Source: a virus. Taken from it: a stretch of DNA of 13,591 nt. Each line of letters opens with the position of its first letter. The first letter of the stretch is position 1. The DNA lies in UHGV virus genome UHGV-1770993; one strand, given 5' to 3'. Under the pieces are notes generated by a model, which had not been told where the DNA came from, ran no database searches, and was given only the letters and a program-made list of their open reading frames with translations. Shown here in pieces: positions 2,120 to 9,204 of the stretch. Position numbers and translations under genes: made by a program.

Positions 2120-2266
2120 ATGACAAAACAACTCAGTCCTTACCAGGACAAAATTCACAAACACATACTACGTGATCGCTTCCTGTCCAGCTTCAAGCAG
2201 CCTGGTCGATTCCGGGCTGAGTTGGAAAAAGTGAAGCTGATGCAGAAGGAGAAAGGTCATGAGTAA
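2120..2266 (+). CDS. Small basic protein (48 aa), hypothetical; not in the supplied ORF track
   Basis: ATG 2120 preceded by GGAG at 2111-2114; stop TAA 2264-2266 overlaps the O-like start (ATGAGTAA); [48 protein letters not shown]. Confidence 0.4.
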
Positions 2267-3119
2267 TCTTGCAACCGTAACACATTTAAGGCCTTCACAA
2301 CGGCCTGTGGAGCGTCGTGTGGCAGAAGTTGAAGATGGTTATACCCGTCTTGCAAATGCCCTGTATGAAGAGCTTATCGGCGCAGATTTAACGAAAAATC
2401 AGAGCAAGGTTGCCCACGCCATATGCCGTAAAACATACGGCTACGGTAAAAAGATGGATCGCATCTCTGATAGTCAGTTAGCTCAAATTACCAGGCTGCC
2501 AAGACAGAAGGTAAACAAGGCCAAGAATGAGCTTATCGCGATGAAGGTTATCCTTCGCGAAGGCCAGCAAATCGGGCCTAACAAGAACATCGAGGAATGG
2601 CAAATCGAAGGGTGTCACTACTCTGGTGATAATGTCACTGCATTGGTGACAAAAAGTGTCACCAAAACGGTGACAGCGCTGTCACCAAAACAGGGACACA
2701 CAAAAGAAACTATTACAAAAGAAAAAAGAAATAATAAAAACACTATGTCCGAAAGTGTTCGGACGGAGTGTGAAAAATCACCTGACCGTCACGAAGAAAC
2801 CGACAAGGCATTCGAGGAAATATTCTGGTGTGCAGGCATGCGGAAGGCCGGGAAGAAAAACGCAGCTTCGGCATTCAGAACACAGTTCAGGGAATGGCGT
2901 AAAACTACCAGGGGTACGGCAAGCGAGTTTGCCACGATGCTGGCAGAAGACATCGCATGCAGGAATGGTAAGCAGTTCGGATTCGACAGGTTGTTACCAT
3001 CGAGCTACCTGAACGGTCAGCGCTGGAACGACGAGAAGCCAGAAACTATTCAACCACAATCCAAACCATCATCCGCAATCACCGTATCGAAAACTGGCTA
3101 CGTGTTTTTCGACAGGTGA
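2259..3119 (+). CDS. O: Replication initiator, lambda O-like (N-terminal iteron-binding domain)
   Basis: N-terminal region (...[13 protein letters not shown]...[41 protein letters not shown]...GPNKNIEEW) resembles lambda O from memory; contains internal iterons and an AT-rich tract like ori-lambda. Confidence 0.85.
2620..2745 (+). repeat. Putative replication origin inside the O-like gene: iterons followed by an AT-rich tract
   Basis: Repeated GTGACA/TGTCAC palindromic units (TGTCACTGCATTGGTGACA, GTGTCACCAAAACGGTGACA, GCTGTCACCAAAAC) at about 2627-2691, then the A-rich stretch AAAAGAAACTATTACAAAAGAAAAAAGAAATAATAAAAAC. Confidence 0.65.
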
Positions 3120-3226
3120 ACCATGAAATCAAAAATCAAATCGCTACTGGTCGCTGGTTATAACCACGGCTGGTTAAGTATTTCGTTTGTCGATTTCTGG
3201 TTTAAAAATCTCAATCTGAGGGAATC

Positions 3227-5107
3227 ATGACGCCAAGTGAACTCAGTGACCTGCTTTGGGCGCAGGTTGACAGGGTGGCTCCGCACCTGTTGCCAAACGG
3301 CAAGAAAGAGGGGCATGAGTGGGTTGCCGGTAACGTCAACGGTGACAAGGGAAACAGCCTTAAGGTCAACCTTAGCGGCAAGAAAAAATGGGCTGATTTC
3401 GCTGAGGGAGACGGCGGTGACATGCTTGATTTGTGGATGGCATGTCGTGGAATTAACCTGCATCAGGCTATGCAGGAAGCGAAAGCCTTTCTCGGAATCA
3501 AGGATGACGATCACCATTTCGATGCCAAACGTGAGAAGAAATTCTCCAGACCTGACCGCAAGAAAATCGCCCGCTACGTTACCAGAACAGAATCCCATCT
3601 TGAGTACCTGCAATCGCGTGGCATATCGCCAGAAGTCGTAAAGCGCTACGAGGTTGTCAGCGGCAAGGTGTGGAATGGAGAACGAGAACTTGATGCACTG
3701 GTGCTTCCGTACAAACGCGATGGTGAGTTGTTGCAGGTCAAGCGAATCAGCACTGAGCGACCGGACGGGAAGAAAGTCATTATGGCAGAAGGTGATTGCG
3801 AACCTTGTCTGTTTGGATGGCAGGCTCTGGACGCTGGCGTGAGGGCGGTTGTACTTTGCGAAGGCGAAATTGATTGTATGAGCTATGCGCAATATGGCAT
3901 CTCGGCGTTATCCGTGCCGTTTGGTGGCGGGAAAGGCGCTAAACAGCAGTGGATTGAGTTTGAGTATCACAACCTCGACAGGTTTGAGGAAATATTCATC
4001 TCGATGGACGTTGATGATGTTGGTCGTGAAGCCGCAAGGGAAATCGCAAGCCGACTCGGTGAACATCGTTGCCGTCTTGTTACTCTGCCGTACAAAGACA
4101 TCAACGAATGCCTGATGAACGGTGTTACCGAGGATGAAATCTGGCAGTACATCGGCACGGCATCCTACTTCGATCCTGAAGAACTCTACAGCGCGCGAGA
4201 GTTTTACCAGGACACTATCAACGCTTTCTACGGCAAGCAGCAGTATCTGTTTAATCCACCGTGGGAATCTCTGGCAGATAAATTCCAGTTCCGTGAGGCA
4301 GAGTTGACGCTGGTCAATGGTGTGAACGGTCACGGAAAAACGGAGGTTGTCGGGCATATGGCACTTGAGGCAATGCGTCAGGGTGTGAAGACGTGCATCG
4401 CGTCACTTGAGCTGAAGCCAGGCATTCTCCTTAAGCGACTTACCCGTCAGGCGACGTGCTGCAAGATGCCGCCAGTGCTGGAAATTGACTCTGCATTTAA
4501 ATTTTATGACGAAAGACTTTGGGTGTTTGGCCTGACCGGAACGGCGAAAGCCGACAGGCTGATCGAAATATTCGACTACGCTCGCCGCCGATACGGGATC
4601 CAGTTATTCATCATCGACAGCCTGATGAAATGTGGCATAGGCGACGATGACTATAACGGGCAGAAGGCGTTTGTTGACTCGATTTGCGACTTCAAAAACA
4701 AAACAAACTCCCACGTCATTCTCGTTACTCACTCGCGAAAAGGAGACAGCGAAGAAAAACCAACCGGGAAAATGGACGTAAAAGGCTCTGGAGCGATAAC
4801 AGACCTGACAGACAACCTTTTCATCATCTGGCGTAACAAGGCTCGCGAGAGAGCGTTACAGAGAGTTCAGAGTGGTGAAAAGATGTCAGAGAAGGACGAA
4901 CAGCTACTGGCATCTCCGGCATCTGTTTTGATGCTTGAAAAACAACGTAACGGCGAAGGTTGGGAAGGTGGTGTCCCGTTGTTCCTTGACGAGCAATCGC
5001 ACCAGTTCCTGCAACTTGAATCAGGATCGCCATATAGCTACATCGCCAATATGCCGAAATCGGAATATGACGAGGCGTGGCGACAGGAAAACGTGACGGA
5101 GTATTAA
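3227..5107 (+). CDS. Replicative primase-helicase (Toprim domain fused to a DnaB/RecA-fold SF4 helicase domain)
   Basis: 626-aa ORF; Toprim-like CEGEID and DVDD motifs; Walker A GVNGHGKTE and Walker B LFIIDSLMK in the C-terminal half; occupies the position of lambda P. Confidence 0.8.
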   Translation: MTPSELSDLLWAQVDRVAPHLLPNGKKEGHEWVAGNVNGDKGNSLKVNLSGKKKWADFAEGDGGDMLDLWMACRGINLHQAMQEAKAFLGIKDDDHHFDAKREKKFSRPDRKKIARYVTRTESHLEYLQSRGISPEVVKRYEVVSGKVWNGERELDALVLPYKRDGELLQVKRISTERPDGKKVIMAEGDCEPCLFGWQALDAGVRAVVLCEGEIDCMSYAQYGISALSVPFGGGKGAKQQWIEFEYHNLDRFEEIFISMDVDDVGREAAREIASRLGEHRCRLVTLPYKDINECLMNGVTEDEIWQYIGTASYFDPEELYSAREFYQDTINAFYGKQQYLFNPPWESLADKFQFREAELTLVNGVNGHGKTEVVGHMALEAMRQGVKTCIASLELKPGILLKRLTRQATCCKMPPVLEIDSAFKFYDERLWVFGLTGTAKADRLIEIFDYARRRYGIQLFIIDSLMKCGIGDDDYNGQKAFVDSICDFKNKTNSHVILVTHSRKGDSEEKPTGKMDVKGSGAITDLTDNLFIIWRNKARERALQRVQSGEKMSEKDEQLLASPASVLMLEKQRNGEGWEGGVPLFLDEQSHQFLQLESGSPYSYIANMPKSEYDEAWRQENVTEY

Positions 5108-7403: not shown

Positions 7404-7588
7404 ACGCCACAATTCAAACGATACCAGAGCTTCTTATCCAGACACGAGGCAATCAGACCGAAGTGGCAAGGATGCTTTCCTGCGCAAGAGGAACAGTGCT
7501 CAAGTACAACCGAGACAGCAAAGGCGAGCGTCACGTAATAGTTAACGGCGTCCTGATGGTCAAACAGGGCAAAAGGGGAAGGCCATGA
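7400..7588 (+). CDS. ninH: NinH-like protein (62 aa)
   Basis: ...TIPELLIQTRGNQTEVARMLSCARGTVLKYNRDSKGERHVIVNGVLMV resembles lambda NinH (...TIPDMLVEAYGNQTEVARRLKCSRGTVRKY..., from memory); its stop overlaps the Q start. Confidence 0.7.
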   Translation: MNATIQTIPELLIQTRGNQTEVARMLSCARGTVLKYNRDSKGERHVIVNGVLMVKQGKRGRP

Positions 7589-8208
7589 GACTCGAAAGCG
7601 CAGCTAAATTTCATTCGCCAAAAAGCCCGATGATGAGCGACTCACCACGGGCTACGGCTTCTGACTCTCTTTCCGGTACTGATGTGATGGCTGCTATGGG
7701 GATGGCGCAATCACAAGCCGGATTCGGAATGGCTGCATTCTGTGGTAAGCACGAACTCAGCCAGAACGACAAACAAAAGGCTATCAACTATCTGATGCAA
7801 TTTGCACACAAGGTATCGGGGAAATACCGTGGCGTTGCAAAGCTTGAAGGAAATACTAAGGCAAAGGTACTGCAAGTGCTCGCAACATTCGCTTATGCGG
7901 ATTATTGCCGTAGTGCCGCGACGCCGGGCGCAAGATGCAGAGATTGCCACGGTACAGGCCGTGCGGTTGATATAGCCAAAACAGAGCAGTGGGGGAGAGT
8001 TGTTGAGAAAGAGTGCGGAAGATGCAAAGGTGTCGGCTATTCAAGAATGCCAGCAAGCGCCGCATATCGCGCTGTAACGATGCTAATCCCAAACCTTACT
8101 CAACCCACCTGGTCACGCACTGTTAAGCCGCTGTATGACGCTCTGGTGGTGCAATGCCACAAAGAAGAGTCAATCGCAGACAACATTTTGAATGCGGTCA
8201 CACGTTAA
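7585..8208 (+). CDS. Q: Late-gene antiterminator Q, lambda type
   Basis: 207-aa translation (MRLESAAKFHSPKSPMMSDSPRATASDSLSG...CRDCHGTGRAVD...) is essentially identical to lambda Q as I remember it; followed by PR'/qut. Confidence 0.92.
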   Translation: MRLESAAKFHSPKSPMMSDSPRATASDSLSGTDVMAAMGMAQSQAGFGMAAFCGKHELSQNDKQKAINYLMQFAHKVSGKYRGVAKLEGNTKAKVLQVLATFAYADYCRSAATPGARCRDCHGTGRAVDIAKTEQWGRVVEKECGRCKGVGYSRMPASAAYRAVTMLIPNLTQPTWSRTVKPLYDALVVQCHKEESIADNILNAVTR

Positions 8209-8250
8209 CAGCATGATTGCCACGGATGGCAACATATTAACGGCATAATA

Positions 8251-8290
8251 TTGACTTTTTGAATAAAGTTGGGTAAATTTGACCCAACGA
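8251..8290 (+). promoter_or_regulatory. Late promoter PR' with overlapping qut site
   Basis: -35 TTGACT at 8251-8256, 17-bp spacer, -10 TAAATT at 8274-8279; the sequence is near-identical to the lambda PR' region from memory. Confidence 0.8.
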
Positions 8291-8480
8291 TGGGTTAATT
8301 CGCTCGTTGTGGTAGTGAGATGAAAAGAGGCGGCGCTTACTACCGATTCCGCCTAGTTGGTCACTTCGACGTATCGTCTGGAACTCCAACCATCGCAGGC
8401 TGAGAGGTCTGCAAAATGCAATCCCGAAACAGTTCGCAGGTAATAGTTAGAGCCTGCACAACGGTTTCGGGATTTTTTAT
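8286..8480 (+). ncRNA. 6S-like PR' leader RNA ending at the tR' intrinsic terminator (hairpin 8422-8471 plus T-run 8473-8479)
   Basis: Region matches the lambda 6S RNA/tR' sequence from memory; CCCGAAAC...GGTTTCGGG stem followed by TTTTTTAT. Confidence 0.7.
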
Positions 8481-8482
8481 TT

Positions 8483-8557
8483 GGGTCAGTCGTATAAAGG
8501 TCATTACGGAAGGCTGTTAACCTTCTTATCGTGGTTCGAGTCCACGCTGTCCCGCCA
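8483..8557 (+). tRNA. tRNA-like gene, anticodon GTT (Asn) by manual folding
   Basis: Cloverleaf by eye: acceptor GGGTCAG/CTGTCCC (6 of 7 pairs), anticodon stem GAAGG/CCTTC with loop CTGTTAA, T-arm CGTGG-TTCGAGT-CCACG, discriminator G and encoded CCA; the D-arm is irregular. Confidence 0.45.
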
Positions 8558-8562
8558 AATAT

Positions 8563-8638
8563 GCTGGTTTAGCTCCAATGGTAGAGCGGTCGCCTTGTAA
8601 GCGAATGGGTAGCGGTTCAAGTCCGTTAACCAGCACCA
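8563..8638 (+). tRNA. tRNA gene, anticodon TGT (Thr) by manual folding, 76 nt with encoded CCA
   Basis: Acceptor GCTGGTT/AACCAGC (7 pairs), D-arm GCTC-CAATGGTA-GAGC, anticodon loop CTTGTAA, T-arm AGCGG-TTCAAGT-CCGTT, discriminator A, CCA. Confidence 0.65.
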
Positions 8639-8880
8639 TAACTGAGCCGTAGCCACTGGCTATCCTGAACTCATCAGTGATAGTTACGCTGCGGCCTTCT
8701 ACACATGACCTTCGTGAAAGCGGGTGGCAAGAGGCTGCGCTAACAACCTCCTGCCGTTTTGCCCGTGCATATCGGTCACGAACAAATCTGATTACTAAAC
8801 ACAGTAGCCTGGATTTGTTCTATCAGTAATAGACCTTATTCCTAATTAAATAGAGCAAATCCCCTTATTGGGGGTAAGAC

Positions 8881-9204
8881 ATGAAGATGCCAGAAAAACA
8901 TGACCTGTTAGCCGCCATTCTCGCGGCAAAGGAACAAGGCATCGGGGCAATCCTTGCGTTTGCAATGGCGTACCTTCGCGGCAGATATAATGGCGGTGCG
9001 TTTACAAAAACAGTAATCGACGCAACGATGTGCGCCATTATCGCCTGGTTCATTCGTGACCTTCTCGACTTCGCCGGACTAAGTAGCAATCTCGCTTATA
9101 TAACGAGCGTGTTCATCGGCTACATCGGTACTGACTCGATTGGTTCGCTTATCAAACGCTTCGCTGCTAAAAAAGCCGGAGTAGAAGATGGTGGAAATCA
9201 ATAA
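8881..9204 (+). CDS. S: Holin/antiholin S (class I holin, dual-start motif MKM)
   Basis: 107-aa translation [41 protein letters not shown]... matches lambda S from memory; dual start codons Met1/Met3 are present. Confidence 0.92.

Follow-up and report, generated by a model that had tools for sequence, protein, structure and literature searches.

Which genes lie between the late terminator tR′ and the holin gene of this lambdoid prophage, and what would a temperate phage gain from carrying them there? The DNA that was analysed, referred to below as the window, is a stretch of 13,591 nucleotides (UHGV virus genome UHGV-1770993). The original prediction, made from the sequence alone, had placed two tRNA-like genes in this interval and had suspected the first of them of being a degenerate copy.

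Two tRNA genes occupy the interval between tR′ and the holin gene

In the 13.6 kb of the window, ARAGORN called two tRNA genes and no more, both on the + strand. They lie at the coordinates of the original prediction, with the predicted anticodons and encoded CCA ends, and neither was a no-call or a pseudogene call. The pair consists of the following elements:

8483-8557, + strand: tRNA-Asn, anticodon GTT (GUU in the RNA), 75 nt, encoded CCA, discriminator G73 (ARAGORN, Rfam, covariation)
8558-8562, + strand: 5-nt spacer AATAT in the interval between the Asn and Thr genes (sequence)
8563-8638, + strand: tRNA-Thr, anticodon TGT (UGU in the RNA), 76 nt, encoded CCA (ARAGORN, Rfam)

Against the Rfam model RF00005, the gathering score of which is 29 bits, tRNA-Asn scored 55.3 bits (E 7e-10) and tRNA-Thr 61.2 bits (E 2e-11). 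Both genes have the canonical features of elongator tRNAs, that is a 7-nt anticodon loop (CUGUUAA in Asn, CUUGUAA in Thr), U33, a purine at position 37, U8, A14, G18-G19 (GG being found in both D-loops), a UUCRA T-loop (UUCGAGU in Asn, UUCAAGU in Thr) and a 3′ CCA. The identity set recognised by AsnRS is composed of G34, U35, U36 and the discriminator G73, and that recognised by ThrRS of G1-C72, C2-G71, G35 and U36. All of the AsnRS elements are present in the tRNA-Asn of the window (anticodon GUU; G before CCA), as are all of the ThrRS elements in its tRNA-Thr (GCUGGUU...AACCAGC-A-CCA; anticodon UGU). Across 92 related loci, G73 of tRNA-Asn is retained in 90, and the spacer between the two genes reads AATAT in 44 of these and AACAT in another 37. 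It is near-certain that the pair are real tRNA genes belonging to a known cassette.

The window corresponds to the right arm of a P22-like (Lederbergvirus-type) lambdoid prophage, in which the genes are ordered as CI-like repressor, O-like initiator, primase/helicase, nin region with RusA, Q, holin S, endolysin, Rz, Rha-like, small and large terminase subunits. Around the tRNA genes, the locus is organised as follows:

7585-8208, + strand: Q antiterminator gene, 207 aa (PHROG 127, anti-termination protein Q-like, E 2e-82)
8251-8279, + strand: pR′ late promoter, with −35 TTGACT at 8251-8256, a 17-nt spacer and −10 TAAATT at 8274-8279 (promoter scan, near-identity to lambda)
8421-8482, + strand: tR′ intrinsic terminator, with the hairpin at 8421-8473 and the T-run TTTTTT-A-TTT at 8473-8482 (near-identity to lambda, MFE fold)
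8639-8706, + strand: conserved 3′ flank of the cassette, about 67 bp, start of the late-mRNA leader 5′ of S (comparison with lambda and phage 21)
8881-9204, + strand: S holin/antiholin gene (PHROG 126, holin/anti-holin, E 1e-40)

Q is annotated as such in Kapi1 and phiv205-1, and the pR′ stretch carries a promoter or qut annotation in HK446 and HK630. The terminator tR′ differs from that of lambda by one mismatch. It was left unreported on the + strand by the consensus terminator scan, the 3-8 nt limit of which is exceeded by the hairpin loop, and was established by its near-identity to lambda together with MFE folding.

The promoter pR′, the 6S/qut leader, the tR′ hairpin and the region upstream of S are all near-identical to lambda. 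The start region of S, the first late protein gene after the tRNAs, is identical to that of lambda S. In the alignment, homology to lambda breaks off at about 8480-8482, after the tR′ T-run, and restarts at 8640. The 157 bp at window 8483-8639, which are essentially the two tRNAs and the 5-nt spacer, stand in place of the 161 bp at lambda 44784-44944. The alignment thus supports the predicted insertion between tR′ and the holin gene, in the Q-antiterminated late transcript, and shows a tRNA cassette where an ordinary lambda-like spacer might have been. Of the predicted exchange of about 200 bp for about 160 bp, the size of the insert was correct, but the lambda side is 161 bp and not about 200.

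The cassette belongs to a widespread and already described family

Over its 156 bp, the pair is 100% identical to that of Shigella phage SfI and 98-99% identical to those of Sf6 (98.7%), BTP1 (98.7%), HK446, Kapi1, SPN9CC and others, including phage 21. The 651 bp around the pair are 100% identical to phiv205-1 and 98.9% identical to HK446, mEp506 and Kapi1. In Sf6, SfI, BTP1, HK446, mEp506, Kapi1 and phiv205-1, the pair (98-100% identical over 156 bp) lies between Q and the holin gene as in the window, and nothing material differs in the cassette. The replication module of phiv205-1 differs from that of the window, which makes the window another mosaic member.

Phage 21 (OL657228) has the same order of terminator, Asn, 5-nt spacer, Thr and holin as the window. 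Its Asn gene is identical at 75 of 75 positions, the anticodon arm of its Thr gene is identical, and the flank of about 67 bp follows. However, its Q, pR′, terminator and holin are of the phage 21 type, whereas those of the window are of the lambda type. The 3′ flank is common to the window, lambda and phage 21 despite the unrelated Q, promoter and holin of the latter. An identical 30-nt stretch comes after tRNA-Thr in about 95 of the 120 viral loci among the matches listed.

The genes are annotated as tRNA-Asn and tRNA-Thr in mEp506 and Kapi1, and the cassette is found in 369 of 5,426 complete E. coli genomes, where the PGAP annotation gives tRNA-Thr and tRNA-Asn. The SfI paper (2013, PMC3636060) described the pair and gave this set for the corresponding site of phage 21, Sf6, SfI and ST64T; the epsilon34 paper noted the pair in P22-like prophages (PMC2629481). 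The Asn-Thr cassette is thus already known, being annotated in GenBank/RefSeq in hundreds of records and published from phage 21 and Sf6 onwards. By analogy, its Thr gene may be regarded as functionally characterised through a relative that differs by one base, tRNAThr21 of phage 21.

More generally, the interval between tR′ and S is a mosaic hot spot, and other phages have different inserts here. Stx phages of the 933W type carry ileZ-argN-argO, tRNA genes in the late leader after Q and pR′ that are usually explained by the supply of rare codons. That set comprises Ile (CAU-derived) and Arg (UCU, UCG) species, in contrast with GUU and UGU in the window. It had been correctly predicted that the anticodons differ from those of the Stx set; the set found here has itself long been known from this site in phage 21, Sf6, SfI and ST64T.

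The mismatched stems are conserved and the other stems covary

The imperfect acceptor stem and D-arm attributed to the first gene are confirmed: in tRNA-Asn, the acceptor stem is interrupted by the mismatch U4.U69 and the D stem by U13.U22. Likewise, the anticodon arm of tRNA-Thr (GUCGC-CUUGUAA-GCGAA) carries a G27.A43 mismatch and contains zero CNG motifs. One reading of such defects is that one or both genes are decaying pseudo-tRNAs, hitch-hiking in the recombination hot spot between tR′ and S without a current function. The mismatches in the Asn acceptor and D stems and in the Thr anticodon stem would agree with decay, and so would the varied inserts of this mosaic site. In ST64T and PS3, moreover, the anticodon loop of the second gene is 4 nt long, and the gene receives no ARAGORN call.

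Against decay, both genes of the window score far above the Rfam threshold, and the variation among copies is nearly all compensatory or in loops. Seven differences separate the Asn gene of the window from the Klebsiella-phage copies, six of them forming three compensatory pairs and the seventh lying at a loop position. For the Thr gene, the same comparison gave two compensatory pairs and one change from G-C to G.U, the rest being at unpaired positions. At least four compensated versions of the Thr acceptor stem occur among 120 viral contigs, within the matches listed.

We also aligned five members of the Asn lineage, from lambdoid phages, Klebsiella phages, the T4-like phage WFK, an Erwinia jumbo phage and Morganella MP1. 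In this alignment (n=5), 93% of the cells are paired and 10 of 21 pairs changed on both sides. None of 500 shuffles gave covariation as high, and slid controls gave 35-47% pairing. U13.U22 is invariant in all five members, which makes it a trait of the lineage and not a sign of decay, and of 92 related viral loci, 87 retain U4.U69. The mismatches are shared across phages of E. coli, Salmonella and Klebsiella. In addition, the near-identical tRNAThr21 works in vivo, where it rescues ACA decoding, and this rescue needs the UGU anticodon (PMC12445682).

Overall, covariation and conserved mismatches led us to reject the idea of a degenerate copy for tRNA-Asn. Its mismatches are conserved features of the lineage, its other stems compensate and its identity elements are intact, and the suspicion raised in the original prediction was not borne out. 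The pseudo-tRNA reading as a whole is disfavoured, and we find it hardly credible.

The cassette is fused to tR′ and lies downstream of the late promoter

A promoter scan of positions 8150-8950 gave pR′ as the sole sigma-70-like promoter and found none private to the cassette. The T-run of tR′ adjoins G1 of tRNA-Asn without a spacer. The same junction, T6-7-A-TTT/G1, is found directly 5′ of Asn in 84 of 92 related viral loci, and it lies behind at least two unrelated types of terminator, the phage 21/ST64T type (about 65 loci) and the lambda type (about 15). In the phage 21 record, the annotated terminator ends 1 nt 5′ of tRNA-Asn. Because the cassette has no detectable promoter of its own and abuts the tR′ T-run, it should depend on pR′ and on Q read-through, barring leakage at tR′.

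Judged from this anatomy, the cassette would be transcribed from pR′, mainly upon Q antitermination, at the 5′ end of the late transcript. If standard E. coli tRNA processing applies, RNase P and 3′ trimming would release two CCA-ended tRNAs. The RNase P cut at G1 of Asn would regenerate a 6S-like leader, and the 5-nt spacer together with the encoded CCA would make for a simple exonucleolytic 3′ maturation.

It may be asked whether the cloverleaves act mainly in cis. In that case, cleavage by RNase P or RNase E would split the 6S-like leader from the S-R-Rz message and would set the 5′ end of this mRNA, hence its stability or translation, the tRNAs being by-products. The exact coincidence of the tRNA start with the end of the tR′ T-run, by which an RNase P cut would yield a 6S-like RNA, agrees with such a role. 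So do the flank of about 67 nt that travels with the cassette into the unrelated late region of phage 21 and the existence in E. coli of tRNA-mRNA co-transcripts such as thrU-tyrU-glyT-thrT-tufB. However, the same lysis genes are expressed in lambda and P22, which have no tRNA at this site, and conserved anticodons, identity elements and an encoded CCA are unneeded for processing signals. GUU and UGU are invariant even across lineages with Asn genes that are only 58% identical. A mainly cis-acting role is, in our judgement, very unlikely.

The threonine gene carries the features of resistance to P2 Old

P2 Old, the effector of P2-lambda interference, kills lambda-infected cells by cutting the host tRNA-Thr(UGU) (Govande et al. 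2025, PMC12445682). In host tRNA-ThrU, where nt 28-30 and 40-42 form paired CNG motifs, the cut is made after the C, and host tRNA-Asn(GUU) is also cleaved, more slowly (PMC12445682). Phage tRNA-Thr(UGU) genes rescue from P2 Old; resistance requires alteration of CNG plus loss of the 27:43 pair (PMC12445682). The resistant tRNAs include tRNAThr6 and tRNAThr21, the latter from phage 21; tRNAThr21, which has a UGU anticodon, the substitutions C28U/G42A and a shorter stem, protects against P2-OLD (PMC12445682). For this experiment tRNAThr21 was expressed constitutively on a plasmid and not in its native late position, and the rescue was partial (PMC12445682).

Judged against the phage 21 genome record OL657228, the Thr gene of the window is identical to that of phage 21 at 75 of 76 positions. 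The sole difference, at nt 26 (G here, A in phage 21), lies outside the anticodon arm. In place of the CUG/CAG of host thrU (nt 28-30, 40-42), the window has UCG/CGA, which corresponds to the C28U/G42A of tRNAThr21. Both published features of Old resistance, the altered CNG and the lost 27:43 pair (G27.A43), are thus present in the window Thr.

Viral contigs were scanned with a pattern in which nt 26 and both stem strands were left free, a pattern that confines the sample to fairly close relatives; at least 120 loci with 16 distinct sequences were obtained. Among the matches listed, the Thr anticodon arm with its unrepaired G27.A43 is identical in 118 of 120 contigs. The G26 variant, which is that of the window, SfI and Oslo, accounts for 26 of the 120 listed contigs, A26 being the variant assayed in the tRNAThr21 work.

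Since tRNAThr21 shares its anticodon arm, an anti-Old role of the Thr gene would, by analogy, come close to having been shown. In the case of tRNA-Asn, the host gene has CGG/CCG, with CNG on both strands, as compared to AAG/CUU in the phage gene, and this sequence comparison suggests that the Asn gene may have an anti-nuclease role too. Timing is awkward for an anti-Old role, as Old is triggered early, by RecBCD inhibition, while the cassette needs Q, and the Q gene of the window itself contains 4 ACA codons.

The host counterparts of both tRNAs are also targets of PARIS AriB

A second nuclease, AriB of the PARIS system, cleaves host Lys(UUU), Thr(UGU) and Asn(GUU) tRNAs (Belukhina et al. 2025, PMC12409363). 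It cuts at the 40/41 junction beside U36-A-A-U39; the substitution U39A abolishes cleavage and A41C reduces it (PMC12409363). The Lys, Thr and Asn variants of phage T5 jointly neutralise PARIS (PMC12409363). At this site, the window has UAAGCG in Thr and UAACCU in Asn, as compared to UAAUCA and UAAUCC in the host, so that positions 39 and 41 are altered in both. As evidence of AriB evasion these differences would be weak, since the phage tRNAs are only 62-69% identical to those of the host and such differences are expected by chance. A systematic avoidance of U39 among the lineages of phage tRNA-Asn, which was also considered, is contradicted by P1 and Morganella MP1, whose tRNA-Asn keeps U39; the Klebsiella Asn copies carry CNG motifs.

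T5 resembles the window in having Thr(UGU) and Asn(GUU) species with substitutions at positions 39/41, beside the 40/41 cut (PMC11464382, PMC12409363). Unlike the window it has a tRNA-Lys(UUU), and it is a virulent phage with more than 20 tRNAs whereas the window represents a temperate phage with 2. ARAGORN found no tRNA-Lys(UUU), the prime AriB target, a resistant form of which is needed for rescue (PMC12409363), in the 13.6-kb window, and phiv205-1 is likewise without one: the calls there are Asn, Thr and an Arg(cct) at 1009-1083 beside the annotated attL (1069-1085). With no tRNA-Lys(UUU), the Asn-Thr pair alone should not fully neutralise PARIS from strain B185. An AriB-related role of the cassette may be proposed from its sequence.

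Codon supply may account for part of the pattern

A role that is unrelated to host defences must also be weighed, in which the cassette would purely boost the decoding of late genes. Its premise is that ACA (and AAU) are commoner in the phage and that the host tRNA-Thr(UGU) is single-copy and of low abundance. The enrichment of ACA is real. In the long ORFs of the window and of phiv205-1, ACA makes up 24-30% of the Thr codons (11.7-16.5 per 1000), as compared to 7-16% (5-9 per 1000) in the E. coli samples. The peak, 16.5 per 1000, is reached in the late operon of a carrier, and a position in the late operon fits a need during bulk synthesis of structural proteins. The same ACA bias was reported in the SfI paper (17.3 vs 7.1; PMC3636060).

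However, the same load is found in two relatives that carry no tRNA genes and grow without the cassette. Over whole genomes, ACA is used at 13.0 per 1000 in lambda and 13.3 in P22, as compared to 11.7-13.9 in the carriers, and this makes codon supply weaker as a specific driver. The Asn gene is not accounted for either. The Asn codons AAC/AAU show no clear bias (38-44 per 1000 in phage vs 35-41 in E. coli), and E. coli K-12 has four Asn tRNA genes. The Asn test was also negative in the SfI paper, but the codon used there was CAA, whereas GUU reads AAC/AAU (PMC3636060); our recount with the correct codons agrees with that negative result. Codon supply further leaves unexplained why the destabilising G27.A43 mismatch and the lost CNG motifs are held constant in 118 of the 120 listed copies while other stems drift with compensation, and why both species match the targets of Toprim nucleases. 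Given the real enrichment of ACA, plain codon supply is a viable explanation, though we think it rather unlikely to be the whole one.

Other Asn-Thr combinations and the probable role of the cassette

Asn and Thr genes are also found together outside the close relatives of the window. P1 and Cyrano carry an Asn-then-Thr tandem, theirs with a 2-nt spacer, the Thr gene of which is 79-81% identical to that of the window. Their Asn gene belongs to another lineage, 58-63% identical to the lambdoid Asn, and their tandem lies outside the late leader. In contrast with the window, the Thr gene of P1 has a full 5-bp anticodon stem with CUG/CAG and is predicted from this motif to be Old-sensitive. That the Asn genes of the lambdoid and P1/Cyrano tandems have diverged while the Thr genes are alike hints that the combination itself may be selected.

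The Klebsiella arrays Asn-Phe-Thr-Arg (Mulock, ST16-OXA48phi5.2) are closer. They lie in the interval between Q/terminator and holin, with Asn and Thr genes that are 87-93% identical to those of the window and with an identical Thr anticodon arm, including G27.A43. They differ from the window by the additional Phe(GAA) and Arg(UCU) genes, by a CNG regained in the Asn stem and by an Asn gene without an abutting T-run.

Taking these data together, we consider it probable that the cassette provides a Q-dependent late supply of nuclease-resistant replacement tRNAs, the supply of ACA decoding being secondary. Replacement tRNAs serving late-protein synthesis would escape the Toprim-family anticodon-stem nucleases of competing prophages and satellites. 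Extra decoding of ACA, the use of which in these phages is 2-3 times that of the host, would be a compatible secondary benefit.

A broader proposal, which we advance tentatively as a possibility, is that the whole Asn(GUU)-Thr(UGU) cassette serves temperate enterobacterial phages as a module of two tRNAs, timed by tR′ and dedicated to counter-defence against Toprim anticodon-stem nucleases (P2 Old, PARIS AriB and relatives). In such a module, tRNA-Asn would also be resistant to cleavage, its CNG motifs and U39 being lost, and the unrepaired G27.A43 of tRNA-Thr would be held by selection for resistance. Being fused to the tR′ T-run, the cassette would deliver its tRNAs during the synthesis of late structural proteins, once a resident P2/P4-type element has destroyed the tRNAs of the host. 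Under the same proposal, the second gene of ST64T and PS3, with its 4-nt anticodon loop, could be a non-decoding decoy and not a dead gene. If true, the two-tRNA module would extend the work of 2025 and would not be a new kind of system.

As a genome feature, the cassette is ordinary. It may serve as a clean natural example of a current idea, in which temperate phages retain one or two tRNAs as substitutes for those of the host that rival mobile elements have destroyed, and not as a remedy for codon bias. Phages of the lambda type suit this replacement idea, P2 interference being a classic phenotype there. With its fixed anticodon arm, the targets that it shares with P2 Old and PARIS AriB, and lambda and P22 as controls for ACA usage, the cassette would offer a convenient and genetically tractable test of the replacement-tRNA idea.

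Lineage and codon usage of the tRNA-Asn gene

To place the tRNA-Asn gene of the window (8483-8557, + strand), it was compared with those of Erwinia phage pEa_SNUABM_47, E. coli phage WFK and Morganella phage MP1. T4-like and jumbo phages also carry tRNA-Asn genes of the lambdoid kind, and together these form a phage-specific lineage. Its hallmark is an invariant D-arm, GUAU-AAAGGUYA-UUAC, in which U13.U22 is mismatched. Identity of the lambdoid gene is 62% with host asnT and 58% with the tRNA-Asn of P1, the host gene being no closer than that of P1.

The GUU anticodon decodes AAC and AAU, and CAA is a Gln codon. In the genome paper of SfI, codon 'CAA' was used as the test for this anticodon, and the statement on tRNA-Asn codon bias made there is therefore founded on the wrong codon (PMC3636060). 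When the count was repeated with AAC and AAU, no clear Asn codon bias was found.

Variants of the cassette

In Klebsiella lambdoid phages, the cassette is enlarged to Asn-Phe(GAA)-Thr-Arg(UCU), in some with an additional Gly gene. These expanded arrays, located between Q or a terminator and the holin gene, were present in 9 of the 120 viral loci among the matches listed, and their Asn gene lacks the fusion to the T-run.

Expanded Klebsiella arrays
Mulock, 1201-1520
Klebsiella phage L013, 539-855

A cassette version about 88% identical is carried by Salmonella phage ST64T and by PS3. Its second tRNA gene (ST64T 1281-1349) has a tRNA model score of 42 bits, and ARAGORN returned no tRNA call for it. 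The anticodon loop of this gene has only 4 nucleotides (CCUUC-CUAA-GAAGG). The variant is common to PS3, SW-70, ST-29 and Salfasec13b. Two readings of this second gene are offered: a Thr gene that is dead, or a tRNA-like RNA that does not decode and may serve as a decoy.

Surroundings of the tRNA genes

About 67 bp directly 3′ to tRNA-Thr are conserved in the window, lambda and phage 21.

Conserved flank of about 67 bp
window, 8639-8706
phage 21, 1277-about 1345
lambda, 44945-about 45010

Lambda has this flank but not the tRNAs, and phage 21 has it although its Q, pR' and holin are unrelated. The flank behaves as a putative component of the mobile unit, or as a candidate conserved late-leader element.

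RNA-seq of Kapi1 lysogens is reported to give a clear antisense signal over both tRNAs, on what is the minus strand of 8483-8638 in the window; the same study cites a similar signal in BTP1, between the tRNAs and the holin gene (PMC12922286). A consensus scan of the minus strand at 8150-8950 found no sigma-70-like promoter. A minus-strand ORF overlaps the tRNAs, and some records list it as 'hypothetical'. Further upstream, the replication module is not the O/P pair found in phiv205-1, whose region around the tRNAs is otherwise identical. This difference is ordinary lambdoid mosaicism.

Other features of the window
8504-8656, minus strand, 50-aa ORF
2259-5107, replication module: O-like initiator (286 aa) and 626-aa primase/helicase

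Timing and nuclease specificity

The Q gene (7585-8208) contains four ACA codons, and making the antiterminator that activates the cassette therefore relies on host tRNA-Thr(UGU). This reliance is a timing problem for a model in which the phage tRNA-Thr replaces host tRNA-Thr(UGU) cut by P2 Old, unless tR' read-through pre-loads the cell.

P1-type tRNA-Thr(UGU) genes
P1, 703-778
Cyrano, 650-725

The P1-type tRNA-Thr has kept all 5 bp of its anticodon stem, CUG/CAG motifs included, and should, by the published rules (PMC12445682), be sensitive to P2 Old. Yet it carries G39 in place of U39, the determinant for AriB (PMC12409363). Separate phage tRNA-Thr lineages may be tuned to separate nucleases.
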